Shown: positions 26,678-51,878 of the stretch, in pieces
Numbering within the stretch: position 1 is the first letter of the stretch
Layout of the letters: every line of letters begins with the position of its first letter
Assembly: GCA_017608505.1 (NCBI GenBank)
Contig: JAFCFT010000002.1
Span: 15,299 to 79,298 of the forward strand
DNA length: 64,000 bases
Source of the DNA: Candidatus Parvarchaeota archaeon
GTDB lineage: Archaea; Nanobdellota; Nanobdellia; WJKC01
Direction: 5' to 3'
Notes under the pieces: generated by a model
The model's input: the letters and a program-made list of their open reading frames with translations, nothing else
The model's database searches: none
What the model was told of the DNA's origin: nothing
Translations under genes and position numbers: made by a program

Positions 26678-29536
26678 TTAGGATAGCTTTATACCCATAT
26701 TTCTTGCTGTTAAATCAACTGCCATTCTATTGATATCTTCATTCATCGCCATGAATTTGCTGATTAAATTTGGGTTTTTGTCTAATAAGAAATCCATAAA
26801 TTTTTCTGTTAATCTTTTTAGAAGCCCTTTTTTAAATACCATTCCTAAATCTTTATCTTTGTTACCTTTAATCATTGTTGTAACAAATTCATCATGGGTT
26901 ACATTTTCAATATATTCTTCTATTAATCCTTTTTCATCATCAGATAATGATGATTCAAATCTTAAGTTAATTGCTTCAACAACTTCTTTAACAGTTACAT
27001 ATTCTATTTCTCTTTTTTTACCCGCACTAATTATTTCTTTTTCTTTTGGTTTTTCCTTTTTAACTTCTTTTATTTTATATTTAGTTACATAAATTTTTTC
27101 TAGTTCTTTATCAAGCATTCTAAGTTTACCAAAAGGGCTTAAATAATTAGCCATATAATACGAAAACCTAGCAAAGTTTCTTAAGTCTTTATCTCTGATT
27201 ACGAATAAATTGTTTAAGAAGTTAAATGTATTATTATACTTCACTAATAAGCCTCTGAATTCTCTTCTTTTCTTAACTTCATATTTATGCAATCTCTTTT
27301 CTATATTTTGCGCAATTTTTTCAAAATAGAGATTAGTTTCATTATTAAGTATCCCTATATTAAAATCGTCTACGTCTTTTTTAGTAAAAACATTCCAATT
27401 AATTAAATCAATATATATTTTACTTAGTTCTTTAGTGTCTAATCCTGTTCTATCAATAACTGTTTTTTTGTATCTTCTGAATGCTTTTATAATTTCTTTG
27501 TACGAGTTCGTGAAATCAATTGTTAATGTGTCCCTTTTGTTTGGGAATACTCTGTTTAATCTGCTTATAGTTTGCACAGCATTAATTCCTGAAACACTTT
27601 TATCAAGAAACATTGTGTGTAATAATGGTTGATTAAATCCATATTGAAACTTGTTGGCCACTATTAAAAATCTGTAATTTTTTTTCTTAAATTCATCCTC
27701 AATTTTTCCTTTTATTTTATTTAAGTTTGCTTCAGTATATACTTTATCATCACCTTTTTTTAATTTAATACTACCTGTAAACGCCACTAAAGTTTTGTAC
27801 TCTAATCCTTGGTCTTGTAATTCTTTGTCTAATATTAGTTTATACTTAACTGCTGCTTTGCGACTGCTAGTTACTATCATTGCTTTGGCATAATTATCTT
27901 TTATTGCATTCTTAGTATGTTCTTCAAATATTTTGATTATGATTTTCACTTTAGCCTTTATTATATTTTCATCCTCGTAAGCTTTGGCTTTAATTTTTTT
28001 AATAACTGGCAATGGAGGGTATTCTTTACCTTCTCCTATTTTTTCTGATAACTTGTATAGTGTTTCGTAAGGAATAATATTATCAGATACATTGAGTATT
28101 TTACCCTCTTTTTCTGCTTGATCCATACTATAAACATCAAAGGGTTTACCAAACATTTGTATTGTTTTATCACTTGGGGTTGCAGTTAATGCAATAAAAA
28201 CCAAGTTTGGAAATTTTCTCTTAACTAATTCTGCACTTAACTCGTCTTGGAAGTTTTCTTCATAAGGTTCAAAATAACCTAACATGTTTTTGTGTAGTTT
28301 ACCTGTTTGTGATCTGTGCGCTTCATCAATTATTATACAAATCTTTTTACCTTTCTGTTCTGTTAGTAATTCTTTTAACTTTGTGACTGAGAATTTGTGT
28401 ATGGTGCTTACCACTACTTTTTTATTTTTGTTTAATGCTGTTGCTAATTCTTTCGTTGTTTCAACATAGGCTACTAAACCTTTTTGTGTTTCAACGTTTC
28501 TTATTTCATTTCCTAATTGTGTGTTAAGATTAATCCTATCTGTCAGTATTACTATTGAATCAAACAAAGGTTTATTATCGTAATGTATGTGTCTTAGGAA
28601 TCTTTGGAGTATTGCTATTGTGTAACTTTTACCGCTTCCTGCACTATGTTGTATTAAGTATCTTAAATCTAGTTTCTTAGTTTTCGAATAATTCTTTAAT
28701 ATATCTTCTCTAATTTTATTTACTGTTCTTCTCTGATGATATCGTGGGAAGAAAAAAGTAGTAACTTCTCTTCCATCTGGAAGTTTTACTTTTATGGTAT
28801 GCAAGTAATGTTCTATTATTTCTATTAATGATTCTGGTGTTAGTATTTCATTATACAAATATTCTATATTATACTCATTCTCTACTTGCGGGTTAATTAA
28901 GTCTTTGTTAAACCATACGAAGTCTTCAACACTATTACTAATGAATTCAGTGGCTATCTTAACATTTTTAGTGTCTGCTGCGATATGTAGTATTGGTTTC
29001 TTAAATATGTTCAAGCTTTTATCCCTGTCATCAATGTATTGTATTACTGCGTCATCAACTACTTGACCAGTTAATGGATTCTTTAATTCTATTGTGATTA
29101 AGGCAAAACCATTTAGGAATAAAACAATGTCTATTGATTCCATTGTTTTTCTGAAACAGAATTGTCTAACGTAACTGAAAATGTTTGATTCATAACGTTT
29201 TAATGTTTCAGGATTATAACTCGTCTCGGGTTTAAAATAAATTAACCTAATTTTAATATCATTGATTGTTATTCCATCTCTTAAGACCTCAAATAATTTC
29301 TTTTTATCTAATTCTTTACTAATCACTTTCTTAACTTCTTTAAGCCACTTATTGCCAAAAAATGATTTTAATTCTTTAACTTCTTCTGGTTGGGTTCTGG
29401 TTAAGAACTCCATTAATATATTATCGTCGATGTTAATACTTAAATCGATGTCATCAGTAACCCGCTTGCGATAACCATGGGCTTCTAATCTTTCACAAAA
29501 ATGAGTCTCAAACTTCTCTTCTTTCGGACCAGTCAC
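26678..29536 (-). CDS. hsdR: Type I restriction enzyme R subunit (HsdR)
   Basis: 952 aa with SF2 motifs 'HSAGSGKS' and 'IIDEAHRSQ', and an N-terminal nuclease region. It overlaps hsdS by 4 nt. Confidence 0.85.
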   Translation of the reverse strand: MTGPKEEKFETHFCERLEAHGYRKRVTDDIDLSINIDDNILMEFLTRTQPEEVKELKSFFGNKWLKEVKKVISKELDKKKLFEVLRDGITINDIKIRLIYFKPETSYNPETLKRYESNIFSYVRQFCFRKTMESIDIVLFLNGFALITIELKNPLTGQVVDDAVIQYIDDRDKSLNIFKKPILHIAADTKNVKIATEFISNSVEDFVWFNKDLINPQVENEYNIEYLYNEILTPESLIEIIEHYLHTIKVKLPDGREVTTFFFPRYHQRRTVNKIREDILKNYSKTKKLDLRYLIQHSAGSGKSYTIAILQRFLRHIHYDNKPLFDSIVILTDRINLNTQLGNEIRNVETQKGLVAYVETTKELATALNKNKKVVVSTIHKFSVTKLKELLTEQKGKKICIIIDEAHRSQTGKLHKNMLGYFEPYEENFQDELSAELVKRKFPNLVFIALTATPSDKTIQMFGKPFDVYSMDQAEKEGKILNVSDNIIPYETLYKLSEKIGEGKEYPPLPVIKKIKAKAYEDENIIKAKVKIIIKIFEEHTKNAIKDNYAKAMIVTSSRKAAVKYKLILDKELQDQGLEYKTLVAFTGSIKLKKGDDKVYTEANLNKIKGKIEDEFKKKNYRFLIVANKFQYGFNQPLLHTMFLDKSVSGINAVQTISRLNRVFPNKRDTLTIDFTNSYKEIIKAFRRYKKTVIDRTGLDTKELSKIYIDLINWNVFTKKDVDDFNIGILNNETNLYFEKIAQNIEKRLHKYEVKKRREFRGLLVKYNNTFNFLNNLFVIRDKDLRNFARFSYYMANYLSPFGKLRMLDKELEKIYVTKYKIKEVKKEKPKEKEIISAGKKREIEYVTVKEVVEAINLRFESSLSDDEKGLIEEYIENVTHDEFVTTMIKGNKDKDLGMVFKKGLLKRLTEKFMDFLLDKNPNLISKFMAMNEDINRMAVDLTARNMGIKLS

Positions 29537-30843
29537 GCTACCACCTTCATTTTACCAGTAACACAATCATTAATTAAAACCCTCTTATATTCTTCTAACC
29601 TTTTGATTTCATCCTCAATGATATCTATAGCACTCTTTATTTTCTCAGTAAAAGAATCCAAAAAAGCAACAATAGCTTCTTGTTCTTCTTTGTCCGGTAA
29701 TGGAAAATAAAAATTAACAAACGTTTTTTGGTACAAATGAGAAATTGTTGAACCTGTCTTAATATATTCAATAAAATTATTAAAAAGTTCTGAATTAAGA
29801 ACCCAGAACATAAACTTTGGCACGTAAATATTATTTTCAGGTCTTATAACAAAAACACCACTATTAAGAGTGGCTTTTCCGTAAAAACCTTCAATAAATG
29901 CTACTTTTCCAATACTACCATCTTTTGTAACTAAAACATCTTCATTTTGAATTTGTATATATGGATCCTGTAAATATCTTTCTTCATCAACGTGATGACA
30001 GGTTTCCCAATTTATTTTACCATTTTCAAAATTGGTTCCAGTTATTAAATAAGGCCCTTCATCTCTATATTCCTTAGATGTTAATCCTTGCCAACCTATT
30101 CTTGATTTAACATAAGATGTTGTTTTTATTCTTTTAATTTTAAACCTTTTAGCAATATGATTTAGCCATTTTATTCCACTGTCTTTCATTTCAACATTAG
30201 GGTTTAATCCTTTAGTGACTGCTTGATTAATAACTATTTTCTCATACTCTTTCAGTAATTCAACTTGTTTACGCTTATTATTAATCACTTTATCTAACTT
30301 ACTGGTCTTATCATCCAAAAAAGAAGCAATAGCCTCTTGCTCGTCTTTTGGTGGGAAAGGTATTTTAAAATTCTTAACAATATTTTCATTAATATGTCCC
30401 TGGGCCCCTCCAATTGTTTTTTTTAAAAAATAATCTTTTGAATTTAGCAATATGTAAAATAAGAATCTTGGAATAAAAGAATTATTAGGATAAAGTGCTG
30501 TAACTGATTGGTTAGCTGCAGAATCAAATTTTAAATAAGCAACATTGGCTCTAGTGGCGCCAGTTAGAGCAATTAATACAGAATTCCTTGGAAATAATTT
30601 AGCTGAACTTTCACTTAAACCTAACTCAGTAATAAAAATATCTGCTTCATATAAATCACAATTTTGAATTTTACCTGATGGTAACCAAGGAATGTTTCCA
30701 CCCCAATATTCTGATTTGGCTGTTGATGGAGTCCCCCCACTCGAAGTATTTGCAAAATTTTTAATTTTTCTTAATCTCCAATGTTTTGGTAAAGACTCGA
30801 CATATTCATAATCCACACATTTATACTCCTGATAAGTTCTCAT
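29533..30843 (-). CDS. hsdS: Type I RM specificity subunit (HsdS), two TRDs
   Basis: Duplicated conserved spacers 'PFPPKDEQEAIASFLD' and 'FPLPDKEEQEAIVAFLD'. Confidence 0.85.
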   Translation of the reverse strand: MRTYQEYKCVDYEYVESLPKHWRLRKIKNFANTSSGGTPSTAKSEYWGGNIPWLPSGKIQNCDLYEADIFITELGLSESSAKLFPRNSVLIALTGATRANVAYLKFDSAANQSVTALYPNNSFIPRFLFYILLNSKDYFLKKTIGGAQGHINENIVKNFKIPFPPKDEQEAIASFLDDKTSKLDKVINNKRKQVELLKEYEKIVINQAVTKGLNPNVEMKDSGIKWLNHIAKRFKIKRIKTTSYVKSRIGWQGLTSKEYRDEGPYLITGTNFENGKINWETCHHVDEERYLQDPYIQIQNEDVLVTKDGSIGKVAFIEGFYGKATLNSGVFVIRPENNIYVPKFMFWVLNSELFNNFIEYIKTGSTISHLYQKTFVNFYFPLPDKEEQEAIVAFLDSFTEKIKSAIDIIEDEIKRLEEYKRVLINDCVTGKMKVVA

Positions 30844-31805
30844 GTTTCTTCACTCCTTGTTAATTCGAAGTCAAATTCTTGTAATTTTAAAGCACATTCA
30901 ATAATATAATTGATACAAAAATCTAAATCTTCCTTATTAAAGGTTATTTCTGTTGATGGCATATGAAAAATTGGCTCAGGAGAACCAATAGCCCATACTG
31001 GTTTAGGGATAATTAATGAAAACTTAATGAATTTTCTATAATCTAAGCCAAAAGCAAGAATCTTAACGGCTTTTTGCATAGACTCAATAGATTCCTTTAC
31101 TTTATCAATAAACTCAGATAATCTATCAACATCAAATACTTGATTTTCATTGTTTAGATTAGGAATAAAATTATTTCTTATATTAAAACTATTCAACCAA
31201 GTCATATCTTTTCCAAAGAAAAAAGGTGACTCTCCAAACCTTGTTCTTTTTGATGACTCATAATCCTTTAATAAAAACTCAAAAGCCAAGGAAAGAGCTT
31301 TAATAGATTCATTCTTATTTGAAGAGAATTCACTTTTAGCTTTCTCTAAATAACTTCTAACTTTACTATTAAAAACCAAATTTATAAGAGAGATATCCTT
31401 AACATCAAGGTTATAAACATTTTTACATAATTCTTCAAAAATATTATTTGCAATAATTCTAGATTCTTGAACATCTGTTTTACTTGAAAATATTCCATGA
31501 TGCTTTAAATTAACTCTTTTTCTTTTTAATTTATCTAAACTTGGTCTTGAACTAATTTCAACTTTTGGAGGATTATCATTTATCCAATCATTTATTTTAT
31601 CAAAATATTGCATAAAACTAAGATTATTTGAGTTTATGTCCTTATCTTCTAAGACTAATAAAAATGCTAGTTCAAGAGCATCATGATAATGTAAAAGTGC
31701 CACTGAAGATAACGGTTCTGGTTTTTTGGATTCTTCATTTCCTTTTTCAATTAAGAATTTAGCAAAAGCCAATCTTTTAAGTATAATTTCTCGAGTTAAT
31801 GACAT
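30840..31805 (-). CDS. Unknown protein embedded in the Type I RM operon between hsdM and hsdS (possible HEPN-like toxin/abortive-infection component)
   Basis: 321 aa, all-alpha in appearance, translationally coupled (4-nt overlaps) with hsdS. It has an Rx4H-like 'RVNLKHH' segment. No ATPase motifs. Confidence 0.35.
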   Translation of the reverse strand: MSLTREIILKRLAFAKFLIEKGNEESKKPEPLSSVALLHYHDALELAFLLVLEDKDINSNNLSFMQYFDKINDWINDNPPKVEISSRPSLDKLKRKRVNLKHHGIFSSKTDVQESRIIANNIFEELCKNVYNLDVKDISLINLVFNSKVRSYLEKAKSEFSSNKNESIKALSLAFEFLLKDYESSKRTRFGESPFFFGKDMTWLNSFNIRNNFIPNLNNENQVFDVDRLSEFIDKVKESIESMQKAVKILAFGLDYRKFIKFSLIIPKPVWAIGSPEPIFHMPSTEITFNKEDLDFCINYIIECALKLQEFDFELTRSEET

Positions 31806-31821
31806 TTTTAATCCTCCATAA

Positions 31822-33582
31822 TCATTTTATTAGCCCTAATTCTTTTAGCAGTTTTTTATTTTCTTCTTCTAAGTCTCTAAATTCTTTGATTACTTCTTCT
31901 TGCGACCTTAAAGGTTTATACTTATAAAAGTATTGAGTGAAATTAATCTCGTAACCAACAACCTGTTTCTTAATCTTATATGGTTTTTCAACTTCACGCT
32001 TTAAATATTCGTTAATATCTTCTTTTAGTGGGACATACTCAGCGTCATTAATCTTAACAATTTGAGTGACCTCCTTTCGTTCACCATTAACTTTTTTCAC
32101 AACAGTTTCTTTCTTAGGATTGCCGTTTTCATCAACATCAGTAAGTTCAAGAAATACCTTAGTATAACCAAAATCCTCATTATCAAAAATCTTGGAATTA
32201 TCAGACTCCTTAAATTCCTTATAAATCTCAAAAATCTTAACAATTTGGTCATCAGAGATATACTTACGCTTATTACCAAGACTCTTCTTCATAGGCTCAT
32301 AAAAATTAACAGCATTAATGAGTTGTACCTTACCCCTCCTTCTAGGTTCTTTCCTATTACGGATTATCCATCTGTACGTGGCTATACCTGTGTTATAAAA
32401 TAAATCAGTAGGTAAAGCAATAATTGCATCAATCAGATCATTCTCCAATAAATACTTCCTAAAATTACTTTCACCACTACCAGCATCCCCAGTGAATAAA
32501 GGACTGCCATTAAAAACAATAGCAATACCACTGTCCCCATCACTAGGATTCTTAAGTTTAGATAACATGTGCATTAAGAACAAAGTAGCCCCATCAGACA
32601 CGCGAGGAAGCATGTCCTTAGGGAAACGACCACTAGCATCATCAAGAATAGCTTTTTTATCCTTCTTCCAAGTAACACCGAAAGGAGGATTAGACAACAT
32701 GAAATCAAACTTAGCATTAGGAAACTTATCATTAGTTAATGTATTGCCAAATTTAATATTATCAGACTCTTCACCCTTAATTAACATATCAGAAGCGCCT
32801 ATCGCCCAAGTCTCAGGTTGCTTTTCCTGACCATAAACAATCACTTTAGCCTTAGGATTAACTTCTTTAAGAATAAATTCTTTAGCAATCACTAGCATAC
32901 CCCCAGTACCACATGCAGGGTCATAAATCTCTTTAATCTCACCATCCTTAATCTTAGAATCATTAATCAAAAGTTTAACCATTAATTTAATAACTTCACG
33001 AGGAGTAAAATGTTGTCCTGCTTCCTCACCAGTCTGCTCTGAAAAACGCCTAATTAACTCCTCAAAGATGTAACCCATCTTCTCGTTACTAATAACTTGG
33101 GGAGACAAGTTTAACTCAGAATACTGCTTTAATAATGGATACAACAATTTATCCTTCTCTAACTTATTTAACTCTTTGAAAAGACCAAAGTATTCAATAA
33201 TCATTTTAATATTATCTGTAAAACCATTCAAGTAACTCTTAAAATTCTCTTTAATCTCACTAGTTTTTTCAGCGCAAAGTTTTTCGAAAGTAAACTTAGA
33301 TTTATTATCAAATCCGAGAGAGGTAATTAATTTGTTATGAATAAACTTCCTCTTTTCCGCGTCATCCATTTTAATATTTTTAAGTTTTTTTTCAATTTCT
33401 TTCCTTTTTTCTTCTAAAACACACTCAATCCTTCTAAGAACAACAAAAGGCAATATAATGTCTTGATACTGATGTTGCTTATAAGTATCTCTTAATATTT
33501 CAGCAGATTGCCAGATAAAATTTACTTCAGCACTTATATTAATATGGTCTGCTTTCATATTATAAAACATAACATACACCAT
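31822..33582 (-). CDS. hsdM: Type I RM N6-adenine DNA methyltransferase (HsdM)
   Basis: 'DPACGTGGML' (motif I) and 'LSNPPFG' (motif IV), 586 aa. Confidence 0.9.
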   Translation of the reverse strand: MVYVMFYNMKADHINISAEVNFIWQSAEILRDTYKQHQYQDIILPFVVLRRIECVLEEKRKEIEKKLKNIKMDDAEKRKFIHNKLITSLGFDNKSKFTFEKLCAEKTSEIKENFKSYLNGFTDNIKMIIEYFGLFKELNKLEKDKLLYPLLKQYSELNLSPQVISNEKMGYIFEELIRRFSEQTGEEAGQHFTPREVIKLMVKLLINDSKIKDGEIKEIYDPACGTGGMLVIAKEFILKEVNPKAKVIVYGQEKQPETWAIGASDMLIKGEESDNIKFGNTLTNDKFPNAKFDFMLSNPPFGVTWKKDKKAILDDASGRFPKDMLPRVSDGATLFLMHMLSKLKNPSDGDSGIAIVFNGSPLFTGDAGSGESNFRKYLLENDLIDAIIALPTDLFYNTGIATYRWIIRNRKEPRRRGKVQLINAVNFYEPMKKSLGNKRKYISDDQIVKIFEIYKEFKESDNSKIFDNEDFGYTKVFLELTDVDENGNPKKETVVKKVNGERKEVTQIVKINDAEYVPLKEDINEYLKREVEKPYKIKKQVVGYEINFTQYFYKYKPLRSQEEVIKEFRDLEEENKKLLKELGLIK

Positions 33583-33602: not shown

Positions 33603-33821
33603 TTAACCATAAATAGTCCATGCTTCCTTTTTGAAACTTTTTTCAAACTCTTTAGTTCGAATTTCTTCAAATAGCATGTAAGACTCTAAAAAGACTTTCA
33701 TACATTTCTCACAAACAGGTATTCTACCATTTTTATTTTTTTTGTTACCTAAGAACTTATCTGTTTTAGACTTACAAAAGTGGCAATTGTACTTCTTTAT
33801 TCTTAACAAGTTCTTAATCAT
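33603..33821 (-). CDS. Small zinc-finger protein
   Basis: 72 aa, 'CHFCKS...CEKC'. Confidence 0.35.
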   Translation of the reverse strand: MIKNLLRIKKYNCHFCKSKTDKFLGNKKNKNGRIPVCEKCMKVFLESYMLFEEIRTKEFEKSFKKEAWTIYG

Positions 33822-33894
33822 TATATCACCTCCATTTTTCCTAAATAATAATGGACAATTAAAGTATTAAAATATTATATTAGAAATTACAAAA

Positions 33895-34602
33895 TTATTC
33901 TGTAATATTGAGTGCTACAAGTAATTTACCTGCTGGTTTTAAGATTACCCTGGTGTTCCTTCCTTCTCTTTCCATTTCAATTAAACCACGCCGCTTTAAA
34001 GATTTAAGACTAGCATTAATTTTTTGTGGTTTATGAATAAAAGGCAACTCACCATATCTATCCTTAAAATTTTCACAATATACCCTTCTAAAATAAGTAC
34101 AATTTTCTACTTCACCATTAAATGAATTAAGAATCTTAAGAATATTCCATTGTACATTAGTTAAATCTGTTGCTTTAGGAATTTTAAACATTGGCAATTC
34201 ATTTACCAAATCCTTAGTTTTAGCATCCTTTAATATACGTTTATCAAGAACATAATAACCTGTTGCATTAATTAAAATTATAGCAATACTAGCTGCGGCA
34301 GCCATAATATTGGTGCCCATGGTTATATTAAAATAAAAATTAATATTGGAATTGTTTTTTAATTCAATATCTGCAGTTTTTTTTACTTTTATAATTAAAT
34401 CAGTTAATTCAAATGGATTAATAGTAATTGTAGAAACAGAATCACAAATAGCTAATTTAATAATCTTTTCTGCTTCTTTAGAAACATTCTTAGTGCCTTC
34501 AGAATCAATAAGGTAAACTTTATCTATATCCTCGTAGTGCTTTAAACCAGTAATAATTGGTTCAATTCCGCTTTTTCCAACATTAATAAAATGGATATTC
34601 AT
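33895..34602 (-). CDS. CARF-domain plus winged-helix transcriptional regulator (Csa3-like)
   Basis: The N-terminal Rossmann-like 'IHFINVG...VYLIDSEG...NITMGTN' parallels the Csa3 CARF 'DLTMGMR' ligand loop. The C-terminal wHTH is 'LKSLKRRGLIEMEREGRNTRVILKPAG'. Confidence 0.5.
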   Translation of the reverse strand: MNIHFINVGKSGIEPIITGLKHYEDIDKVYLIDSEGTKNVSKEAEKIIKLAICDSVSTITINPFELTDLIIKVKKTADIELKNNSNINFYFNITMGTNIMAAAASIAIILINATGYYVLDKRILKDAKTKDLVNELPMFKIPKATDLTNVQWNILKILNSFNGEVENCTYFRRVYCENFKDRYGELPFIHKPQKINASLKSLKRRGLIEMEREGRNTRVILKPAGKLLVALNITE

Positions 34603-34647
34603 AATGTTAAAATTAAAAGTTGTAATATCTTAAAAAATATTGCTATA

Positions 34648-35334
34648 CTATAAATATTTAATCATTAAATCCAATAATTCATCGAAAGCGTATAAAGATA
34701 ACAAAAAAATATTAAAGATTACTAAAAACCCTCCAGGACTTTTTTTATTAGTTATAAGATCAGTACTTGAATATCGTTTTTTTATTGGATCGTGATGTTT
34801 ATCTCTTTCATCAGATAAAAAATCAAAAATAAAAAAAAATCTTGGATTTACTGCATCGTATTTTTTTAAAGTAGAAAATAAATTCTTATCCAATTTTACC
34901 CCACTCATTATTATTCCAGGATTCTGTAATCGCCCAACAGTCTCCTTATACATATCTTTGTATTTACAAAAAATAGTAAAATTCTTCGCATAAATAGACA
35001 TTCTGTCACCCTTTTCTTTAGGATCTATATCTATATTTAACTTGTTCAATATTACTTTGAAAACTCTTTTAAAAACAGCATCATTCAATGCACTGACAAT
35101 ATCAACAAAATAAGCAGAATTATCACTACTAATAATCCTTTTTATATCATTCTTTTGATCAATTAAATATTCTATCGCTGCTTCTAATTCTTTTTTTTGA
35201 ATAGAAGTTAACCAAGAAATTTTTTCAAGTTTTTTAATAATGTCCTCTTTAACAAAGTCAATATTATCCAATACACCTTTTATTGATTTTTTTATTTCTT
35301 TAAGACTACAGTCACGACTACTCATTAAAATCAC
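34648..35334 (-). CDS. hypothetical protein with a C-terminal transmembrane helix
   Basis: 228 aa with a hydrophobic C-terminal 'GGFLVIFNIFLLSLYAF'. It overlaps the downstream Type IIG gene by 4 nt. Confidence 0.35.
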   Translation of the reverse strand: MILMSSRDCSLKEIKKSIKGVLDNIDFVKEDIIKKLEKISWLTSIQKKELEAAIEYLIDQKNDIKRIISSDNSAYFVDIVSALNDAVFKRVFKVILNKLNIDIDPKEKGDRMSIYAKNFTIFCKYKDMYKETVGRLQNPGIIMSGVKLDKNLFSTLKKYDAVNPRFFFIFDFLSDERDKHHDPIKKRYSSTDLITNKKSPGGFLVIFNIFLLSLYAFDELLDLMIKYL

Positions 35335-37397
35335 TTATATAAATTATCTAATTCTTTTTTTAGTAAAACTATTTGTGATTCTAACAAATCAATTTTATTT
35401 TGCAATTCTTTTGCCTTTAACATTTTTTCTTTTTGTTTATCAAAGCGTAGTAATGGAATCCTCAAATTTTTTAGTGTATCTATTGGTAAGTGCTTTATCA
35501 CTCCATAACTAAAATTCTCGATTTGTTTTTTAACATAATCGGTTTTTAATAATGAATGTAAATAATAAGGATTAATATCTTTTTTTGGTCTTAAAGCAAC
35601 AAGAGAACTCGAGTGAACTCCTCTATAATCTTCATTAAATATAGCGGTTTTACCTATAGTACCAGTAATTGAAAATAGTATGTCGCCTTTATTTAAATTA
35701 AATTTAAATTTTGAAGAATCGATATTGACTAAATCTTTATTAACAATCGTTCCTGCATATAAATTTAATATTCTAATATACTTTATTTTGCCCTTCCCAT
35801 AATCTTTTTTTGGAACGTGGATCCCAGGGTAGATTTCACATAATTCTTGCAATCTTACAATTTTAATATTATTCTTGCGATACGTTTCTTCAATTTTCTT
35901 TATATCATTCAAATAAGGACCAAATGACAATATATAATTATAACTTTTGATTTCGTTTATACATACTAATTTTCGTAACTTTCCTAAAATCAAAGGTTTA
36001 TCTTCTTCGAATTTTTTAATATACTCTACAATCCCTTCAAATTCCATTTTTAATTTTTCATTAGCAACATCTTTATTTGAGTAATCTTCTTTACAATCAA
36101 TCATCAAAATATCGTTTTTGGTCCTACAATTATCAATAATCATTATTGATGATTGAATATGCATTAATGGGGCCCAAATATTTATAGGCAAGTTTATAAT
36201 CGCTTTAATTGAGTATTCTTCTAATAAATATTTTCTGAAATGCTTATTTGTATTGTCAAATAAAAAACCATTGGGAACTATTACTATTAATCTACCTTTT
36301 GGATTTAATGATTTAAGTGCAACATAAATAAAAGCAGCTTCAACACTTTTAAATTTGGTTAAATCATTTAATTTATCCTTATTTGGCCTTAATCCAAATG
36401 GAGGATTCAAAAATATTACATCAAATTTTTCATGAATCTGGTCATTAAGAACATTTTTAATTTGTAACTCAACATCAATATTTAAGAGGTACTTTATTAA
36501 TTTTATAAAATAAATATTATTCGAATTTTTTTCAAAACCAGTTAATTTAAAATTGTTCAATAAAGCATTTTTTACTAAAACTTGACCTTTTTTGCAATTA
36601 AAATCTGCAAATGATCTAGAATCCTCTTTTATTAATCCCAAAATAAAGTCAACCAATATATTTGGAATATAAGATTCGTCAAATTTACTATTTATTAATT
36701 TGTAATCATATACTATATTTATTATTTTTTCCAATGTTTTTTTATCCAAACTAAGTATATTTAAACTTTTCATTAATAATTCCAAATCGTTTTCTTTGTT
36801 AGTAAAAAGTTTATTAATATTCAAATATTCGGGATCAATATTAAGTTCTCTTGATAACTTTTTTGATAACTCATTTATTTTATCTTTAAATTCATTTAAA
36901 TTTTTGTATTCAAATAAATTTTTAGACCTACCATATTTAATTAACGCCAATAATTTTATAATTATAACTGTACCATTTTCTCTATAATTCCTTAGGTAAT
37001 TAAATATTCTCCAAATTTTACTCGTAACATCAGTATCAAAAGACTCAAGTAATGGAATTTCAGGTACTTCACTAATTTTCTTATTTTTTTTCCTAAAATA
37101 GATAAAATTATCTCCGTTAGTTAATATTCCATAAGGAAAATTAGAATTTAACAACAATTCATTCAATTGAATTTTTGATAAACTACTATCAATCAACTTT
37201 TTAATTTCAATTAAAATATAAGGTTTTGAATCAACATAACAAACTAAATCAGCAATATATTTTACACCATTTTTAATAAAACAACAATTTTTCTCAAATA
37301 ACACATTAACGTCTTTATTAAATCCTGCTCTCAATTTTTCAATAACTTTATTAACAGTTTTTAATCTCCAATTTGGGCGATACTGATTTTCACTCAT
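35331..37397 (-). CDS. Single-chain Type IIG-like restriction-modification enzyme (PD-(D/E)xK nuclease + N6-adenine MTase + HsdS-like TRD)
   Basis: N-terminal 'DLVCYVDSKPYILIEIKK' (D...EIK), 'FLNPPFG' methyltransferase motif IV, and a C-terminal TRD with an HsdS-like conserved tail. 688 aa. Confidence 0.6.
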   Translation of the reverse strand: MSENQYRPNWRLKTVNKVIEKLRAGFNKDVNVLFEKNCCFIKNGVKYIADLVCYVDSKPYILIEIKKLIDSSLSKIQLNELLLNSNFPYGILTNGDNFIYFRKKNKKISEVPEIPLLESFDTDVTSKIWRIFNYLRNYRENGTVIIIKLLALIKYGRSKNLFEYKNLNEFKDKINELSKKLSRELNIDPEYLNINKLFTNKENDLELLMKSLNILSLDKKTLEKIINIVYDYKLINSKFDESYIPNILVDFILGLIKEDSRSFADFNCKKGQVLVKNALLNNFKLTGFEKNSNNIYFIKLIKYLLNIDVELQIKNVLNDQIHEKFDVIFLNPPFGLRPNKDKLNDLTKFKSVEAAFIYVALKSLNPKGRLIVIVPNGFLFDNTNKHFRKYLLEEYSIKAIINLPINIWAPLMHIQSSIMIIDNCRTKNDILMIDCKEDYSNKDVANEKLKMEFEGIVEYIKKFEEDKPLILGKLRKLVCINEIKSYNYILSFGPYLNDIKKIEETYRKNNIKIVRLQELCEIYPGIHVPKKDYGKGKIKYIRILNLYAGTIVNKDLVNIDSSKFKFNLNKGDILFSITGTIGKTAIFNEDYRGVHSSSLVALRPKKDINPYYLHSLLKTDYVKKQIENFSYGVIKHLPIDTLKNLRIPLLRFDKQKEKMLKAKELQNKIDLLESQIVLLKKELDNLYK

Positions 37398-37478
37398 AAT
37401 TAAACATTAGTTAGCAGTATTTATATAGTTTAATATTGAATTTACAATTTATTATTGTAATAAAAATATTTAAATAAT

Positions 37479-38051
37479 TTAAAATAATAGCTTACTCACT
37501 TTCCTCTTCACAGCAATCAACGAAGACTCGCATATCCCGAACTCCTTCGTCACTTTTGACATGCTTATTTTCTCTTTGTTCTTCTTGGCAGTGTCGTATA
37601 GGACCACTGCAGCTAAAACCATTGGGTCGTTGTTTAAGCCCATTTTTTCGATTAATTCGATTTTCCTAATTGCCTCGCTTATAGTTTTGCCACTCAAGCC
37701 CAGATTGTTGCTGTAGCGGGTTATCAAACCAGACATCTGCAGCGCCACAACACTAAGTCTTAAGCTCTTAGTGACTGTCTTGTAAGTCCTGAACAAAGAG
37801 TACTTGTCCGTGTCCAGGGCGCGCGCAATCTCCTTCATACTCACAGTATACCCGTCGCGCTTGCACACGTAATAAGTCAGTGCTCCTATTGCCCTGTCAG
37901 TGAATATTCCCTGGCTCTTGCCAAAATTAATTAGTTCCCAGTATAATCGCATAACTTCGCGCTTAACGCTCCTTGGCAGGCATAGTATGTTGTTCAGCAT
38001 GTCAAACTCCCTGCCAGCAGTAAGCACGCGGTTGATTTTTGGAGTGCCCAT
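37479..38051 (-). CDS. TFB-like protein, cyclin-fold core only (no N-terminal Zn-ribbon or B-reader)
   Basis: Two cyclin repeats align to the TFB core ('LCLPRSVKREVMRLYWE', 'RAIGALTYYVCKRDGYTVSMKEIA', 'ITRYSNNLGLSGKTISEAIRKIE'). The likely start is at Met15 (MGTPKINR) with 'CCTTTATATA' about 25 nt upstream. Confidence 0.65.
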   Translation of the reverse strand: MGTPKINRVLTAGREFDMLNNILCLPRSVKREVMRLYWELINFGKSQGIFTDRAIGALTYYVCKRDGYTVSMKEIARALDTDKYSLFRTYKTVTKSLRLSVVALQMSGLITRYSNNLGLSGKTISEAIRKIELIEKMGLNNDPMVLAAVVLYDTAKKNKEKISMSKVTKEFGICESSLIAVKRKVSKLLF

Positions 38052-38234
38052 CGTAGAATTATTGTGAATAAGTAGTATATAAAGGAAAAACAACCGAAGT
38101 AGTTAAAAATTAACAATACAATATATTTTATAAAGATAGTACTGAAATCTAGTCTTTCAAAAATCTATAAGCCAAAATTTAAGTCTAGGTACGCTAAGGA
38201 GAAGTCCTCCAAATAGGTCGCTCAAGTTTCTAAA

Positions 38235-38579
38235 TTACTTTTTATGAATACTCCAACTGAATTTTAATAGGCCTAAATTAACCTCAAAACCAAATGTATG
38301 TTTAAATTTTGGTTGATTTTCTACGATGTTAATACCTTTAGGTAAAATTCGTGTCACAAAAAATATTTGAGCTCCATTTATATTACCTATTGCTCCATAA
38401 CTCTTAAGAATGCCTAAATCATTAAGATAATTATATGCTAAATTAATTCTCTTTCCATTCCATTTTGTTTCATTAATCACATCTCGTGTTCCAACACTAC
38501 TTTTGCCTTTATTCACTAACTCGTTATAAAAGAAAAGTAACAATTCACCCGCATCTTTTTGAACTCCCATTTTCATCAC
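38235..38579 (-). CDS. hypothetical protein
   Basis: 114 aa ORF overlapping the next gene by 4 nt. Confidence 0.3.
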   Translation of the reverse strand: MMKMGVQKDAGELLLFFYNELVNKGKSSVGTRDVINETKWNGKRINLAYNYLNDLGILKSYGAIGNINGAQIFFVTRILPKGINIVENQPKFKHTFGFEVNLGLLKFSWSIHKK

Positions 38580-40051
38580 TTCAAATTTATATTATACACA
38601 AAGAGGTATGGATTAAAATATGCATCATAGCCTAATTCGAATACTAATTTTACAGACGTAACTGACATTGGAACATCTTTAAATAATACATAACCTTTCT
38701 TTGTAACACCAGGATAAATTTTAGAAAATATTGTATCTAATGTTCCACCGAAAGTACTTTCATACTGGTTTCTTTGGTTGTCTATAATTACCATGCCAGA
38801 TGGTGAAAAATAATCACTTTCACTCCCAATATTTTTAACTTCCATATCTACTCTAAAGTATTGTTTTTTATTACTCCATTTGTTATATAGATTAAAGAAA
38901 CCAGCTTTTGTTACAGTTACTTCAAAATTATCATTACTTATTTTTTTATTAACTATTATTGCATTTTTATTATATTCTTCCTCAGCCAATTGCTCATATG
39001 TGTATGTTTTTTTGTTTTTCAAATCGAAAATATAATCTCCAATAATTATTTTTGAGATATCTACATTTTTAGGAACGTTTTTAAAAGCCATATAACCAGT
39101 TTTTTTAGCTCCACTTTCAATCTCTCCTCCTTCAAACTTTGACCTATATGACCTTTCATATTGATTACTACTAGAATCAATCAATTTTGTATTATAAATA
39201 TAGAAAGAATTTGTTTGTTTTGCCTCAACTTCTAAATCGACTCTTAAAAGGTTTTCTGCAGATATAGAACTATAATCTGTAAAGAATCCATATTTAGTAA
39301 TTCTTATTTTAAAATTATCATCTTCTAATTCCAGTAATGTTTGTTTTGCATTTTTATTATATTCTTCCTCAGCCATTTGCGTAAGTTCTTCTTTTGTGTA
39401 AGTTGGTATCTGTACTACCGTATCTTCTATATGTAATTCTTTTCCATCTGAAGTTACAAAGGTAAGAACTGCCCTACCAAAAGAAGAAATGCCTTTTTGG
39501 ATCTCAGATATTGGTACCCTCCATTCATACGCTTTTCCAATATCTTGACCTGTAAACATAAATTGATAATCAACAAATTCCGATGCCTTTACATCAAATT
39601 CTTTATAATACAGGGAATTATTTAAATTATCAAATATTTCTACCTTCACATGTCCATCTCCAGGTGTGTTTTTCCCATATACATCTTCAAGTAAAAAATA
39701 AAATCTAATTATTTCTCCTTCTTTAACTGTTGCAAAGTAATTTATATTAACAGGCGAATATTTAGAAGCGGTTGTTTGGGATGTATGGGATATTTGTATG
39801 TTTTGTAGAATGTTGGTAGGCGAATATTTAGAAGCGGTTGTTTGGGATGTTTGTGTTTTTTCAGCTGGAATTCCAGTTTGACCTTGCTCTTGAACACAAC
39901 CACATATAAAAACAATTCCAACAATCAAAATTACAATTAATCTTGAATTCATGAATATTTGTTTTTCTATTTTGTTTACCATTTCATAAATTTTATAAAA
40001 TCTTTTTCTTTTAAAGCTTTTTATAATAACAACCCCAAAGGCGGATTGCAA
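38576..40051 (-). CDS. Secreted/surface protein with internal repeats (DUF4352-like Ig-fold repeats)
   Basis: N-terminal TM/signal 'LIVILIVGIVFICGC' with lipobox-like Cys. A duplicated 'SQTTASKYSP.NI' segment is encoded by a 34-bp DNA repeat at 39757/39820. A duplicated 'AEEEYNKNA...NDNF..T.TK.GFF' domain is also present. Confidence 0.45.
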   Translation of the reverse strand: MQSAFGVVIIKSFKRKRFYKIYEMVNKIEKQIFMNSRLIVILIVGIVFICGCVQEQGQTGIPAEKTQTSQTTASKYSPTNILQNIQISHTSQTTASKYSPVNINYFATVKEGEIIRFYFLLEDVYGKNTPGDGHVKVEIFDNLNNSLYYKEFDVKASEFVDYQFMFTGQDIGKAYEWRVPISEIQKGISSFGRAVLTFVTSDGKELHIEDTVVQIPTYTKEELTQMAEEEYNKNAKQTLLELEDDNFKIRITKYGFFTDYSSISAENLLRVDLEVEAKQTNSFYIYNTKLIDSSSNQYERSYRSKFEGGEIESGAKKTGYMAFKNVPKNVDISKIIIGDYIFDLKNKKTYTYEQLAEEEYNKNAIIVNKKISNDNFEVTVTKAGFFNLYNKWSNKKQYFRVDMEVKNIGSESDYFSPSGMVIIDNQRNQYESTFGGTLDTIFSKIYPGVTKKGYVLFKDVPMSVTSVKLVFELGYDAYFNPYLFVYNINLK

Positions 40052-40604: not shown

Positions 40605-41168
40605 TTATTCGTCTTGGCACTCTTTCACGCTCTTCCACACATGGCTTATGCTCATGCCAGAGACTCTTGCCAGGTCCCTAATGCTCACTCCTTGGTCACT
40701 ACACGCTAGATAAATGCACACGAGCGCCTTGGTCTTGTTCGTCTTGTTCACTAATTTTTTCTCAACTTCTTTTATCTTCTTTATTGCTTTTGACGCCTCG
40801 CTCTCCGCAAGCCCTAATTCGTAGCACAGCCTCGTGATGTAGAAGCTGGTGTCAACTTGTTTTCTGGGAAGGTCCACGTTCTGCTTGATAAAAGACTTGC
40901 ACCTAAGCAGGCGCTTCTTCTCAACGCCAGAAGCCTTAATGACTTCCTTTAATAGCAAAGGGTAGTTCAGGAGTTCGCTTACGACCAGCAGGCAGGCGTT
41001 CACAAGCTCTTTCCTGCTCCTGCCTTGTGTTAATTGTTTAAGCATCAACTGCTTGTACAACTTGATAGTGTTCTGGAATAGTCTTTCAGGCAGTCCTAAC
41101 TCATTGCACGTGCTGCGCAATTCCTCATAGGCAGGCATCAAGGACTTAATGAATTGCGAATACTCCAC
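40605..41168 (-). CDS. TFB-like protein, cyclin-fold core only (second paralog; GTG start)
   Basis: It aligns along the whole TFB core ('GRSRKELVNACLLVVSELLNYPLLLKEVIKASGVEKKRLLRCKSFI', 'RLCYELGLAESEASKAIKKIKE', 'GVSIRDLARVSGMSISHVWKSVKE'). 'CCTTTATATATTA' TATA-like box lies about 30 nt upstream. There is no room for a Zn-ribbon. Confidence 0.7.
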   Translation of the reverse strand: MEYSQFIKSLMPAYEELRSTCNELGLPERLFQNTIKLYKQLMLKQLTQGRSRKELVNACLLVVSELLNYPLLLKEVIKASGVEKKRLLRCKSFIKQNVDLPRKQVDTSFYITRLCYELGLAESEASKAIKKIKEVEKKLVNKTNKTKALVCIYLACSDQGVSIRDLARVSGMSISHVWKSVKECQDE

Positions 41169-43067: not shown

Positions 43068-44288
43068 ATGGTTTTGTATTCGCATTCAAGGCTTAGCGCT
43101 TTCGAGAACTGCCCTTTAAAGTACAAGTTTCGGTACATTGACAAATTGAGGACTGATGTTTCCCAAAGTATAGAAGCGTTCATGGGCGACATGGTTCATC
43201 AAACGCTTGAGAAAGTGTACACTGACGCCAAGTTCCAAAAATTCATGACTGCAAAAGAGGCAAAAGAATATCTAAAGCAGTTATGGAAGAAAAACTGGAA
43301 TGACAGTATAGTCATTGTGCGCAAAGAGTACGGCCCAAGTAATTATTTGAAAATGGCTTTAAAATTTATTGAGGACTACTTCAAGAAGTACGACGTAGCA
43401 AACGACGGCATCACAATAGGATTAGAAGAAAGAGTTGTAATAAACCTTGACAAGCAGGGAAGATTCAAGCTCCAAGGATACATTGACCGCCTGGCCTGCC
43501 ACAACGACACAGAATACCACATTATTGACTACAAGACTAACAGTCACTTAAAAATCCAAGACCAATTAGACAACGATAGACAACTAGCTTTATATCAACT
43601 GGCAGTGCAACACAATTACAGAGATGCCAAGAAGATATTGCTGAAGTGGCGCTTTTTGGCATTCAACAAGGAGCTGACAAGCATAAGGACGCGCGAGGAA
43701 TTAAAAGCCTTAAAGAAAGACACAATACAGTTGATAAAACAGATAGAGAAAACAAAGGAGTTCAAGCCAAAGGTGAGCAGGCTATGCGACTGGTGTGAGT
43801 ACAGGCAAATCTGTCCTGAATGGGCGCACATGTATGAATTGGAAACTAAAAGCGCTAATGAGTACTTGAAAGATGACGGCGTGACGCTGGTAAACAAATA
43901 TATAGAATTAAGCGAGCAGAAAAGAAAGCTTGTAAGCGAGATAGATGAAAAGCTAGACAAGCTTAAAGAAGCGCTTGTTAAGTTTGCAAAGAAAAGGGGC
44001 GTGAACGTGGTGTTCGGTTCAAATAACAAGATAAGAGTAAGCATCACAGACCATTACAAGTTCCCAGGCAAAGGCACAAAAGAAAGAGAAAAACTAATAG
44101 AAGTGTTGAAGAAATTAAGAAAATGGGAAGAAATAGCAGATATAGACACTTACGGGCTTAACAGGATAATGAAAGAAAAACTGTGGAGCCCGCAGGAATT
44201 AAGGTTGATAAGGAGATTCGCGACAAAAGAGGAAACACACAGACTTTATCCAAGCAGGATAAATAAGGAAGAAGATACGCAGAAGTAG
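43068..44288 (+). CDS. Cas4-like / RecB-family PD-(D/E)xK nuclease with Fe-S cluster cysteines (solo, no cas1/cas2)
   Basis: N-terminal 'SHSRLSAFENCPLKYKFRY', motifs 'GYIDRL', 'IIDYKT' and 'QLALYQ', and C-terminal 'CDWCEYRQIC'. 406 aa with a long coiled C-terminal extension. Confidence 0.65.
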   Translation: MVLYSHSRLSAFENCPLKYKFRYIDKLRTDVSQSIEAFMGDMVHQTLEKVYTDAKFQKFMTAKEAKEYLKQLWKKNWNDSIVIVRKEYGPSNYLKMALKFIEDYFKKYDVANDGITIGLEERVVINLDKQGRFKLQGYIDRLACHNDTEYHIIDYKTNSHLKIQDQLDNDRQLALYQLAVQHNYRDAKKILLKWRFLAFNKELTSIRTREELKALKKDTIQLIKQIEKTKEFKPKVSRLCDWCEYRQICPEWAHMYELETKSANEYLKDDGVTLVNKYIELSEQKRKLVSEIDEKLDKLKEALVKFAKKRGVNVVFGSNNKIRVSITDHYKFPGKGTKEREKLIEVLKKLRKWEEIADIDTYGLNRIMKEKLWSPQELRLIRRFATKEETHRLYPSRINKEEDTQK

Positions 44289-46353: not shown

Positions 46354-47433
46354 TTATTTCTTTTTCCTTTTCCTCCTGAAGAGGAAAAACATCATGTATG
46401 CTACTGTACTTAGCAGATATCCTATGCTATACATTTTTTGCCCGTAGAAGACATACCTCAGCGTTATCAGCAAGTAGCCGAGGCTGACTAAGTCGTACGT
46501 GCTGACAAGATTTATTTTCTTTAACTGCCTGCTCTTCAGCTCACTCTTGTACTCAGCCTTGTCTTTTAAGTCTCCCATCTTATGCGCGATTAACAAGTCC
46601 TCGCATGCATTCTTCAACTCTTCAGGGTTGCCGATTTTAGCCAGCTCATTCTCGTATTCAACCAGTCCAGAATTCTTAATGAGCTTGTGTATTAACTCGC
46701 TGGCTTCCTCATTAGTGAATCCCCTAAGCCTTACTTCAGCAGAAAAATTAATGCCTTGACTGCTTGTCCCTGCGCCAAGAATTGTAAGCCCGCTACGTTG
46801 CAGCAACTTGATTATCTTCTTGGTCTGCTTGGTGGCTTCTTCAACTTCGTCAATAATGACTATCAAGTCCTCGCTGGCCTTCCTTACTATGTCGTCAAGC
46901 AGCTCGAACATCCGCTTCCTCCTGCCCCTTGTAGTGACCAATGGAATACTCAAGTGCTGCGCCAGCTTCTCAGTGATGTTGCTTGCAGGCCTGGCGTTAA
47001 CAAGCACGGAGTTTTTTAGGTAGTCTTGTTGCAAGTGCTTTAATAGTGTTGTCTTGCCCATGCCAGACTCGCCAAGTATGAGAGTGCTTCTCTTTCTCTC
47101 CAAGTTATAGAGTACTTCCTCCACTATGTCCTTGCGCTGGATGTAGACCTCATCTTTATCAAGTATGAACTCTGTCTTAATCTCAGGCTTCAAGTCATTA
47201 AACTTTCCTAATAAGAAGCAGGCAATTAGTCTGCCCTTGTTGCTTAACGAGTAATAATCCCTATTCTTGACGACCAATCCATGCCTTGTGAACTGCTTGA
47301 TTATCCTGGCAGTCGTTTTGTAATTAACGCTTTTAATCTTCTTCATCTTTGCAGGCCTGTCATAAAGAGCTTCAAGGACAAGCAAGTGATTCTTGCTGTT
47401 ACAAGCTTTAAGCATTAAACTCTTCCAATCCAA
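46354..47433 (-). CDS. wHTH plus P-loop (AAA+-like) ATPase with a C-terminal membrane anchor
   Basis: Walker A 'GESGMGKTTL', Walker B 'LIVIIDEVEE', an N-terminal wHTH-like region and a C-terminal TM segment plus 'RRKRKKK'. Confidence 0.5.
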   Translation of the reverse strand: MDWKSLMLKACNSKNHLLVLEALYDRPAKMKKIKSVNYKTTARIIKQFTRHGLVVKNRDYYSLSNKGRLIACFLLGKFNDLKPEIKTEFILDKDEVYIQRKDIVEEVLYNLERKRSTLILGESGMGKTTLLKHLQQDYLKNSVLVNARPASNITEKLAQHLSIPLVTTRGRRKRMFELLDDIVRKASEDLIVIIDEVEEATKQTKKIIKLLQRSGLTILGAGTSSQGINFSAEVRLRGFTNEEASELIHKLIKNSGLVEYENELAKIGNPEELKNACEDLLIAHKMGDLKDKAEYKSELKSRQLKKINLVSTYDLVSLGYLLITLRYVFYGQKMYSIGYLLSTVAYMMFFLFRRKRKKK

Positions 47434-51866: not shown

Positions 51867-51878
51867 ACGCCCGGGCCG
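51867..51878. repeat. att-like core, proximal copy (3' end of tRNA-Asp)
   Basis: Identical to 26386-26397. Confidence 0.5.

Follow-up and report, generated by a model that had tools for sequence, protein, structure and literature searches.

CARF domains are usually treated as read-outs of signalling by type III CRISPR systems or by the cyclic-oligonucleotide-based antiphage signalling system (CBASS). In Csa3, motif 1 of the CARF domain reads T-phi-G-F-(D/N)-E and motif 2 reads L93-x2-G96-phi-R98, and either of the substitutions G96A and R98A abolishes the binding of cyclic tetra-adenylate (cA4) (PMC8844856). HFX_2341 of Haloferax mediterranei, the founder of a Pfam family, was experimentally shown to be a transcriptional repressor that is not CRISPR-linked and is found in CRISPR-less haloarchaea (PMC11434293). 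Furthermore, genes of RtcR-like proteins, which join a CARF domain to a helix-turn-helix (HTH), lie directly before type I restriction-modification (RM) genes in bacterial superoperons (PMC11090510, PMC4012209). Here, we analyzed a 235-aa protein composed of a CARF domain and a winged HTH (wHTH), encoded in a 64-kb stretch of Candidatus Parvarchaeota archaeon (contig JAFCFT010000002.1), hereafter called the window, whose own coordinates are used for all positions. An initial annotation had presented this protein as a Csa3-like regulator located in a defence island without CRISPR. Our results argue, with moderate confidence, that it is the built-in regulator of a recurring RM cassette and not a stray CRISPR part. 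The gene under study is the following:

33895..34602, minus strand: 235-aa CARF-wHTH transcription factor of the HFX_2341-like or "CARF3" group (family scans, homologue alignment, PDB profile match, AlphaFold2, Foldseek).

First of all, we assessed the fold of the protein. The AlphaFold2 (AF2) model reached a pLDDT of 87.1 and a pTM of 0.71, with the wHTH in H-H-H-beta-beta order. In a Foldseek search against the PDB, Csa3 (2wte, 6e-9) was the top match over the whole chain, and 50 of the 50 matches listed were CARF proteins; therefore a Rossmann-type domain other than CARF, the alternative against which the initial annotation wished its reading to be checked, finds no support. When a profile of 63 sequences was compared to the PDB sequences, residues 2-123 matched the CARF domains of Can2 (8bao, 4e-10) and Card1 (2e-5), and residues 141-224 matched wHTH domains of the MarR/ZitR/AdcR type (1e-6 to 1e-5). 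These predictions identify the 235-aa protein as a true CARF sensor joined to a DNA-binding domain, as had been proposed from the sequence.

The family scans gave a consistent assignment. The PADLOC profile PDLC01866 ("CARF3--CARF") matched the protein over its full length (2.5e-37, 126.9 bits, residues 1-229 on profile positions 1-204 of 207), and on the basis of profile scores we place it in the HFX_2341-like or "CARF3" group. The CARF protein of a haloarchaeal cassette matched the same profile at 2.9e-93, and so the cassette CARF sub-family is, by this match, already catalogued as a CARF3 profile. In Pfam, only sub-threshold matches were obtained: HFX_2341_N (28.4 bits, slightly below the gathering score of 30), DUF6293_C, which covers the wHTH (22.7 bits for a cut-off of 27), CARF_Card1 (18.3 bits) and Csa3_N. 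A search with the single sequence returned two relatives only, a profile search returned 65 homologues of 210-270 aa, nearly all with PF19810 (HFX_2341_N), and an exhaustive search returned 407 clusters (50% identity level) at E<1e-3. Scanning with the GGTN... pattern gave one locus from metagenomes, the window's own genome not being picked up, and no loci from viral sequences.

The gene belongs to an array of eight genes on the minus strand, separated by short gaps or overlapping, which encode a 688-aa fusion protein, the 228-, 235- and 72-aa open reading frames (ORFs), HsdM, a 321-aa ORF, HsdS and HsdR; the 72-, 235- and 228-aa ORFs of the initial annotation were thereby confirmed. The array lies within an island of low G+C content (0.25-0.31, compared to 0.35-0.40 in the flanks). 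Besides the CARF-wHTH gene, the following genes of the array are needed here:

35331..37397, minus strand: 688-aa fusion of an N-terminal PD-(D/E)xK nuclease (HSDR_N_2), a gamma-class N6-adenine methyltransferase (MTase) and one target recognition domain (TRD), from Pfam.
34648..35325, minus strand: middle protein, 225 aa long, or 228 aa if counted from the GTG at 35334; only alpha-helices are predicted, and a public collection contains an identical 225-aa sequence (P0215).
31822..33582, minus strand: type I hsdM (Pfam HsdM_N and N6_Mtase, 2.6e-65).
29533..30843, minus strand: type I hsdS, encoding two TRDs (Pfam Methylase_S 2.5e-45, matched over two stretches).
26678..29536, minus strand: type I hsdR (Pfam HSDR_N, ResIII, SWI2_SNF2 and T1R_D3-like).

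Starting from homologues at 30-35% identity that showed the same gene order, we surveyed all fetched loci with hidden Markov models (HMMs). The succession of nuclease-MTase-TRD fusion (566-767 aa), middle protein (200-295 aa) and CARF-wHTH protein was observed in 14 independent loci, with the CARF-wHTH gene on the same strand or divergent, depending on the locus. The carriers are the window, six haloarchaea (two Natrinema, Salinibaculum, a Natrialbaceae archaeon, Halorubrum and Halovenus), Methanomassiliicoccus, a contig of a Firmicutes-labelled metagenome-assembled genome (L012) and several contigs from metagenomes or sequencing runs, including L034; some of these contigs are probably bacterial. 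Complete hsdM, hsdS and hsdR genes were directly adjacent in 12 of the 14 cassettes, and the exact order of the window (CARF, hsdM, hsdS, hsdR) was found in four haloarchaeal loci and in L034. The window hsdM shares 44% identity with the hsdM of a haloarchaeal cassette (L005). Two short contigs show parts of the same arrangement: in L042, hsdM begins one base after the CARF gene, and L041, whose CARF protein is 71% identical to that of the window, carries the C-terminus of a middle protein, the CARF gene and the Shine-Dalgarno (SD) motif of a gene of the 72-aa type. Across the cassettes, the G+C content ranges from about 28% to above 60%, the shared gene order includes 4-nt overlaps and protein identities are 23-34%. 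No cas genes were found in the 64-kb window or in the flanking sequences of the other 13 cassettes, and no CRISPR array was found within the ~10-kb flanks of any of the 14. This synteny, together with a conserved operator, supports the idea, already present in the initial annotation, that the CARF protein, its neighbours and the RM genes constitute one module.

The operator and the related elements of the window are the following:

37442..37460, no strand: operator O1, perfect 7-N5-7 palindrome TTACAAT-aataa-ATTGTAA, centred at -54 from the ATG of the 688-aa gene.
34607..34625, no strand: putative operator O2, TTACAAC-tttta-ATTTTAA, two mismatches to O1, centred at -14 from the CARF ATG.
33887..33905, no strand: putative operator O3, TTACAGA-ataat-TTTGTAA, three mismatches to O1, over the CARF stop codon and centred at -75 from the ATG of the 72-aa ORF.
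37418..37427, minus strand: TATATAAATA, resembling a TATA box, at -30 to -21 from the ATG of the 688-aa gene (direct reading of the sequence).

The search for a wHTH binding motif upstream of the fusion gene, which the initial annotation had suggested, thus returned a perfect palindrome, and O1 is the sole perfect match in the window. Since perfect 7-5-7 inverted repeats occur in the island at 2.9e-4 per nt, the chance that O1 falls in register by coincidence is about 1e-3. In 615 kb, the pattern GTCAAAA-N5-TTTTGAC with at most two mismatches was matched 15 times. Seven of these matches, from six independent loci of very different G+C backgrounds (L001, L003/L035, L005, L008, L010 and L034), have their centre 53-56 nt before the start codon of the fusion gene and share the register of O1. 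The GTCAAAA consensus is not present at the cassette of the window, where the half-site is TTACAAT. The recognition helix varies together with the operator: it reads PQK(I/V)SYH in the loci with GTCAAAA operators and PQKINAS in the window, a covariation that would be expected if the CARF-wHTH protein reads the palindrome.

O2 would be an autoregulatory site. Sites at the same position were found in L041 (TTAAAAC-aattt-ATTTTAA, centre -13), L035 (-14) and L006 (-13), and O1-like matches with at most two mismatches occur in the island at 2.2e-4 per nt. O3 is a weak candidate operator; at the same place, over its own CARF stop codon, L041 carries TTACAAA-ttaat-ATTGTAA, with one mismatch to O1. 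In L035, where the genes are divergent, one site serves both of them, at -14 of the CARF gene and at -56 to -65 of the fusion gene; judging from the positions of the sites, its two roles appear to be split between O1 and O2 in the window. With the TATA-like element at 21-30 nt before the ATG, the transcript of the 688-aa gene would be leaderless or have a short leader, and O1 lies upstream of the putative core promoter.

Overall, we consider it rather probable that a dimeric CARF-wHTH protein binds the -54 operator and its own promoter, and that this binding is gated by a ligand in the CARF pocket. The wHTH dimer would bind the 7-N5-7 palindrome centred at about -54 from the fusion gene. This palindrome lies upstream of the region of the TATA box and B recognition element, an arrangement seen more typically with archaeal activators than with repressors. 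Binding of the protein to the weaker copy, about 14 nt before the start codon of the CARF gene, would lead to autorepression, and a small nucleotide-like ligand, sensed by the CARF domain, would control DNA binding. The location of the operator suggests that the RM operon is activated, in addition to autorepression; the cassette genes may be co-transcribed.

The conservation of the pocket is relevant to the gating step. The heptapeptide NITMGTN (N92-I-T94-M95-G96-T97-N98), described from the beginning as the CARF ligand loop, is indeed CARF motif 2 and is placed after strand 4. Among the 63 homologues, G96 and T97 are invariant, and H4, G9, N92, T94, G95 and N98 are each kept in at least 90%. 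An alternative to a ligand-gated regulator is a ligand-independent controller similar to the C proteins of type II systems, in which the CARF domain would be a dimerisation scaffold and autoregulation would time or limit the expression of the RM genes. Such a controller would fit the presence of operators both at the RM promoter and at that of the regulator itself, and the lack of any visible ligand source, and in Csa3 the residues of motif 2 also help to form the dimer interface (PMC8844856). However, the pocket loops (N-x-T-G-G-T-N, G9 and H4) are nearly invariant across clades with unrelated cassettes, which exceeds the usual need of a dimer interface, and we regard this alternative as unlikely.

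For a ligand-gated regulator, the chemistry of the pocket gives indications on the input signal. Residue equivalences to Csa3 were taken from sequence and HMM alignments and not from a structural superposition. Compared to the superfamily pattern [DN]x[ST]xxx[RK], motif 2 keeps the Asn, Thr and Gly positions, and the terminal basic residue is replaced by Asn98, a residue conserved in the family that corresponds to Arg98 in Csa3 and to a Lys in Can2. In motif 1, G9 is present, and the equivalents of F10 and F14 of Csa3 are K10 and E14, leaving no aromatic stackers. As judged from these residues, the CARF pocket is strongly conserved yet chemically unlike the known pockets for cyclic oligoadenylates (cOAs). 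In addition, the 235-aa protein scored 19.9 bits with TIGR01884 (Csa3) for a cut-off of 60.2, and 13.2 bits with Pfam Csa3_N (PF22662) for a cut-off of 27. Membership in the Csa3 family, implied by the initial label, was ruled out by these scores together with N98, the missing aromatic stackers and the lack of cas linkage.

These observations also bear on a Csa3-type cross-talk, in which the CARF domain would sense cA4 or cyclic hexa-adenylate (cA6) produced by a distal type III Cas10 or a CBASS cyclase and would couple RNA-sensing immunity to RM. Csa3 is the best whole-length fold match of the protein, a CRISPR array is found no more than ~5 kb from a distant family member in each of L018 and L020, and several homologues were named "CRISPR locus-related DNA-binding protein" by JGI. 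However, homologues of HFX_2341 are present in CRISPR-less species (PMC11434293), and the R98A substitution abolishing cA4 binding in Csa3 affects the very Arg of motif 2 (Lys in Can2) that is a family-conserved Asn here (PMC8844856). The adenine-stacking F10 and F14 are replaced by K10 and E14, the Csa3 models remain far under their cut-offs and CRISPR arrays are missing from the ~10-kb flanks of all 14 cassettes. Furthermore, type III systems are rare among the haloarchaea, to which many of the cassette hosts belong. In the window itself, no CRISPR array was found, an Rfam scan returned a tRNA-Asp only, and no Cas10 or cyclase domain was detected in the ORFs scanned with Pfam, in line with the absence of CRISPR, cas10 and cyclase reported initially. 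We therefore found no evidence for the cOA input from Cas10 or CBASS that had been considered for this protein, the pocket chemistry speaks against it, and we judge this cross-talk to be quite improbable. Given the missing Arg/Lys clamp in motif 2 and the absence of a visible cyclase, a cOA of the Cas10 type is probably not the ligand. From a pocket motif that is kept in clades with unrelated cassettes and has no basic phosphate clamp, we infer a general nucleotide-type signal other than cOA as the input of the regulator.

The middle protein was examined in the same way. Its start is probably the ATG at 35325, because the public collection contains exactly the 225-aa protein but no copy of 228 aa. 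With this start, the gene begins 5 nt after the stop codon of the 688-aa gene, so that the coupling to the fusion gene reported in the initial annotation stays tight but without the overlap. Only four relatives were found among 5.8 billion sequences, to which a 200-aa protein of L037 (HMM 2e-19) and a fragment in L041 can be added; the relatives P0214/P0216 and P0217 and those of L037 and L041 are all encoded directly after the fusion gene. No match to Pfam, NCBIfam, PADLOC or PHROGs was obtained, and the AF2 model of the 228-aa protein (pLDDT 45) was unusable; the protein may be an unrecognised effector, one of the roles considered in the initial annotation. The hydrophobic C-terminus, initially read as a transmembrane (TM) helix, has a borderline Kyte-Doolittle value of 1.92, and it is the most conserved helix of this small family. 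In the closest relative (L041), the C-terminus reads ...LMKLVLYAYYEILQRWNKHYY and is not TM-like, which ruled out a TM anchor despite the borderline value; the 228-aa protein is unlikely to be a membrane protein. Between the window (34648-34760) and L041 (2-115), the C-termini of the middle proteins are far more diverged than the 71%-identical CARF proteins, with only the L-x-LYA(F/Y)-x-E(L/I)L helix kept, which suggests that the middle protein is fast-evolving.

The haloarchaeal middle family compared to the family of the window gave an hhalign probability of 10%, with only the last helix in common. It carries an Rx4-5H motif with an invariant Arg and a His in nine of nine sequences. The middle proteins of L003 and L037 have RNxxEH, and the window copy has LKKYD, with neither Arg nor His. 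No HEPN profile of Pfam, NCBIfam or PADLOC matched any middle protein, and this result together with LKKYD led us to reject a HEPN identity for the middle protein of the window. We also observed that the middle proteins of haloarchaeal type (L001-L010, L028, L029 and L032) share an invariant WFKxY motif, and that their C-terminal ~100 aa (YGFI...G(F/Y)IT...FFPxEGD(V/I)V) are beta-rich and, by eye, similar to a cold-shock or oligonucleotide-binding (OB) fold, without a family match. The window middle protein has neither the Rx4-5H motif nor the beta-rich C-terminal domain.

One explanation built on the middle protein is a post-transcriptional partnership, in which the CARF-wHTH protein and an ancestrally HEPN-like RNase would form an abortive-infection effector of the Csm6/Csx1 type that backs restriction, the palindrome being bound by another factor. 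It could be sustained by the Rx4-5H motif conserved in the haloarchaeal family and present in L003 and L037, by the cold-shock-like C-terminus of the haloarchaeal proteins and by the frequent linkage of HEPN and RM genes (PMC3710099). The absence of HEPN matches, the LKKYD of the window copy and the hhalign value between the two middle families speak against it, as does the C-terminal domain of the CARF protein, a clear MarR-type wHTH whose recognition helix covaries with the operator; we consider this effector very unlikely. Finally, a chance neighbour, that is a global regulator such as HFX_2341, itself without genomic linkage to its targets (PMC11434293), that merely happens to sit in a defence island, deserves hardly any credit given the same order with 4-nt overlaps in 14 independent loci of different phyla and of G+C contents from ~28% to >60%, the positionally fixed operator and protein identities too low (23-34%) for one recently transferred element.

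The reading of a built-in, ligand-gated regulator leads to the other conserved partner, the 688-aa fusion protein. Pfam matches were obtained to N6_Mtase (2.6e-26), Methylase_S (3.3e-12) and HSDR_N_2 (3.9e-8), and the layout is type IIG-like, with nuclease, MTase and TRD in one polypeptide. In an alignment with 13 cassette homologues, the D...E-I-K and NPPF motifs of the window protein are intact, and motif I reads DFNCKKGQ, compared to the canonical DPACGxG. Motif I is degenerate in the fusions of the window, L012 and L034, and motif IV has F, L, W, M, I or V at its fourth position across the cassette fusions. The haloarchaeal fusions do not have the Lys of ExK, and the nuclease domain is absent from the L012 and L034 fusions; the TRD and the overall scaffold are kept throughout. 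Judging from the alignment, the decay of catalytic motifs is lineage-specific; instead of working as an active type IIG enzyme, the fusion may serve as a sensor or as a specificity module. A membership in the MADS system was rejected: the fusion scored 59.6 bits with MAD5 (for 400) and 46.6 bits with MAD2 (for 720), its homologues reached at most 83 bits with the MADS models, and no other mad genes are present.

As an extension that we find doubtful at this stage, the cassette could provide an inducible, "on-demand" restriction. The non-canonical CARF pocket would sense a non-cOA nucleotide derived from the infection or from the cassette, the signal possibly coming from the decayed fusion and the helical protein that would sense unmethylated or foreign DNA, and the regulator would then activate the type I RM genes. 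If true, this would represent a CRISPR-independent CARF signalling pathway in archaea.

Several observations weigh against the regulator reading and its mechanism. Position 95 is a Met in the window protein and a Gly in at least 90% of the family, and Csa3 also has Met95. In a neighbour-joining tree, the RM-linked CARF proteins are not cleanly monophyletic, and other clades of the family adjoin unrelated cassettes (radical SAM and SF1 helicase; a context of HSP70, UvrD and PD-ExK; CRISPR arrays). The half-site of the window is unlike the consensus elsewhere, the equivalence being one of geometry and position, and the 235-aa protein is the presumed binder of the palindrome. Matches with at most three mismatches to O1 are at chance level in this AT-rich window (15 observed, 14.1 expected), so that O2 and O3 are drawn from their position and from one relative (L041). 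The sign of activation is read from the site position only. Lastly, the absence of Cas10 refers to the window, and a distal Cas10 or CD-NTase elsewhere in the genome is possible.

Concerning the other clades of the family, we observed a CARF-wHTH gene divergent from or beside a gene for a radical-SAM protein of about 280-300 aa in L009 (6373-9920), L014 (3412-9936) and L021 (9077-9934). An Upf1-like SF1 helicase (AAA_11/AAA_12, 880-1450 aa) lies near the CARF-wHTH gene in L009, L014 and L006 (4101-6761), and the radical-SAM and SF1-helicase genes may constitute another CARF-regulated defence module. Two paralogous CARF-wHTH genes are placed back to back, convergent or divergent, in L018 (10001-11371), L023 (3982-5653) and L039 (8001-9302). 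In L018, one of the two loci with CRISPR arrays within about 5 kb of distant family members, the CRISPR-like repeat array is ~3 kb away, and a 12-mer seed recurs in it at regular spacing, up to 20 times.

The two remaining genes of the window array are the following:

33603..33821, minus strand: 72-aa zinc-ribbon ORF (CxxC-x20-CxxC), with the strong SD motif GGAGGTGAT.
30840..31805, minus strand: 321-aa protein, function not assigned, matching phrog_37995 (unknown function) at 4e-60.

The 72-aa zinc-finger ORF reported initially looks real, with its CxxC-x20-CxxC arrangement and a strong SD motif that is also seen at the end of contig L041. However, its place in a conserved module did not hold: it is absent from the 13 other cassettes, jackhmmer found no counterpart in the 42 loci, its protein cluster has one member, and the SD motif recurs only in the closest relative. 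By these searches, the ORF is a lineage-specific passenger and not a conserved part of the cassette. The 321-aa ORF lies between hsdM and hsdS, with a 4-nt overlap with hsdS, and had no match in Pfam, NCBIfam or PADLOC. The gap between hsdM and hsdS is the usual site of passengers of type I systems, of the abortive-infection or anticodon-nuclease type.

Around the island, archaeal core genes are found (split rpoB and rpoA, EF-2, EF-1alpha and Kae1). Two minus-strand ORFs contain TFIIB cyclin repeats only. The first (37479-38093, 204 aa) has, by eye, a G+C content visibly above that of the surrounding island and ends 19 nt before O1; the second (40605-41168, 187 aa) sits just outside the upstream edge of the island. 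Homologues of TFB are common cargo of archaeal integrated elements (PMC6563490). A tyrosine integrase gene (50615-51784) adjoins the tRNA-Asp (51867-51943), and a STAND/AAA NTPase (46354-47433) and a PD-(D/E)xK protein (43068-44288) are encoded between the integrase and the RM island; the region from 26.4 to 51.9 kb may correspond to a single integrated element or to several. A 491-aa protein encoded at the upstream edge of the island (38576-40051, minus strand), with an N-terminal hydrophobic segment, a DUF4352 domain and duplicated Thr/Ser/Gln-rich linkers (SHTSQTTASKYSP repeat), is probably a surface protein.

As regards significance, a clade of CARF transcription factors is here hard-wired into RM cassettes, including those of haloarchaeal hosts, in which Cas10 is rare. 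The cassette gives a defined, predicted protein-operator pair for the regulation of archaeal RM systems, and a CARF pocket without a phosphate-clamping basic residue for the search of new ligands. Its two uncharacterised partners, the decayed MTase-like fusion and the fast-diverging helical protein, suggest that the type I RM system is here part of a larger regulated defence unit and not a constitutive barrier. The protein family (CARF3 profiles, HFX_2341_N) and the position of CARF-HTH genes upstream of type I RM genes in bacteria (RtcR-like) are already known. In the accessible literature, with the paper defining CARF3 lying outside this comparison, we found neither a minimal CARF-wHTH protein of archaeal type in a six-to-eight-gene cassette with two further partners, nor the positionally fixed operator and the non-canonical pocket of this cassette.

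Compared to the described systems, the 235-aa protein resembles HFX_2341 by its CARF-like N-terminus and C-terminal wHTH (PF19810 and DUF6293-type, its two best Pfam models) and by its archaeal origin. However, HFX_2341 has 308 aa, is vertically inherited and acts as a global regulator without an adjacent target (PMC11434293); the window protein has 235 aa and lies in a low-G+C island, inside the cassette that it presumably controls. Csa3 and Csa3a (CARF7; 2wte, 6wxq, 6w11) have the same two domains and the identical Met95-Gly96, and the Csa3 dimer binds palindromic promoter elements. In contrast, the window protein has N98 for Arg98, no aromatic residues in motif 1, no cas neighbours and scores below TIGR01884 and PF22662, and by sequence its CARF domain is nearer to the Can2/Card1 type than to Csa3. 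The C proteins of type II systems are also small dimeric HTH regulators inside an RM operon, with palindromic operators at their own and at the RM promoters, but they have no sensor domain and an unrelated fold. Finally, the RtcR-like proteins (CARF-AAA+-HTH) of the RM and CoCoNuT superoperons share with the window protein a CARF regulator in a same-strand defence operon, type I RM genes next to it, no Cas10 and a proposed ligand other than cOA (PMC11090510; PMC4012209). They differ in being bacterial and sigma-54-dependent and in having an AAA+ module, whereas the window protein is a minimal CARF-wHTH with archaeal promoters, in a cassette where the MTase-like fusion and the helical protein are additional conserved partners.

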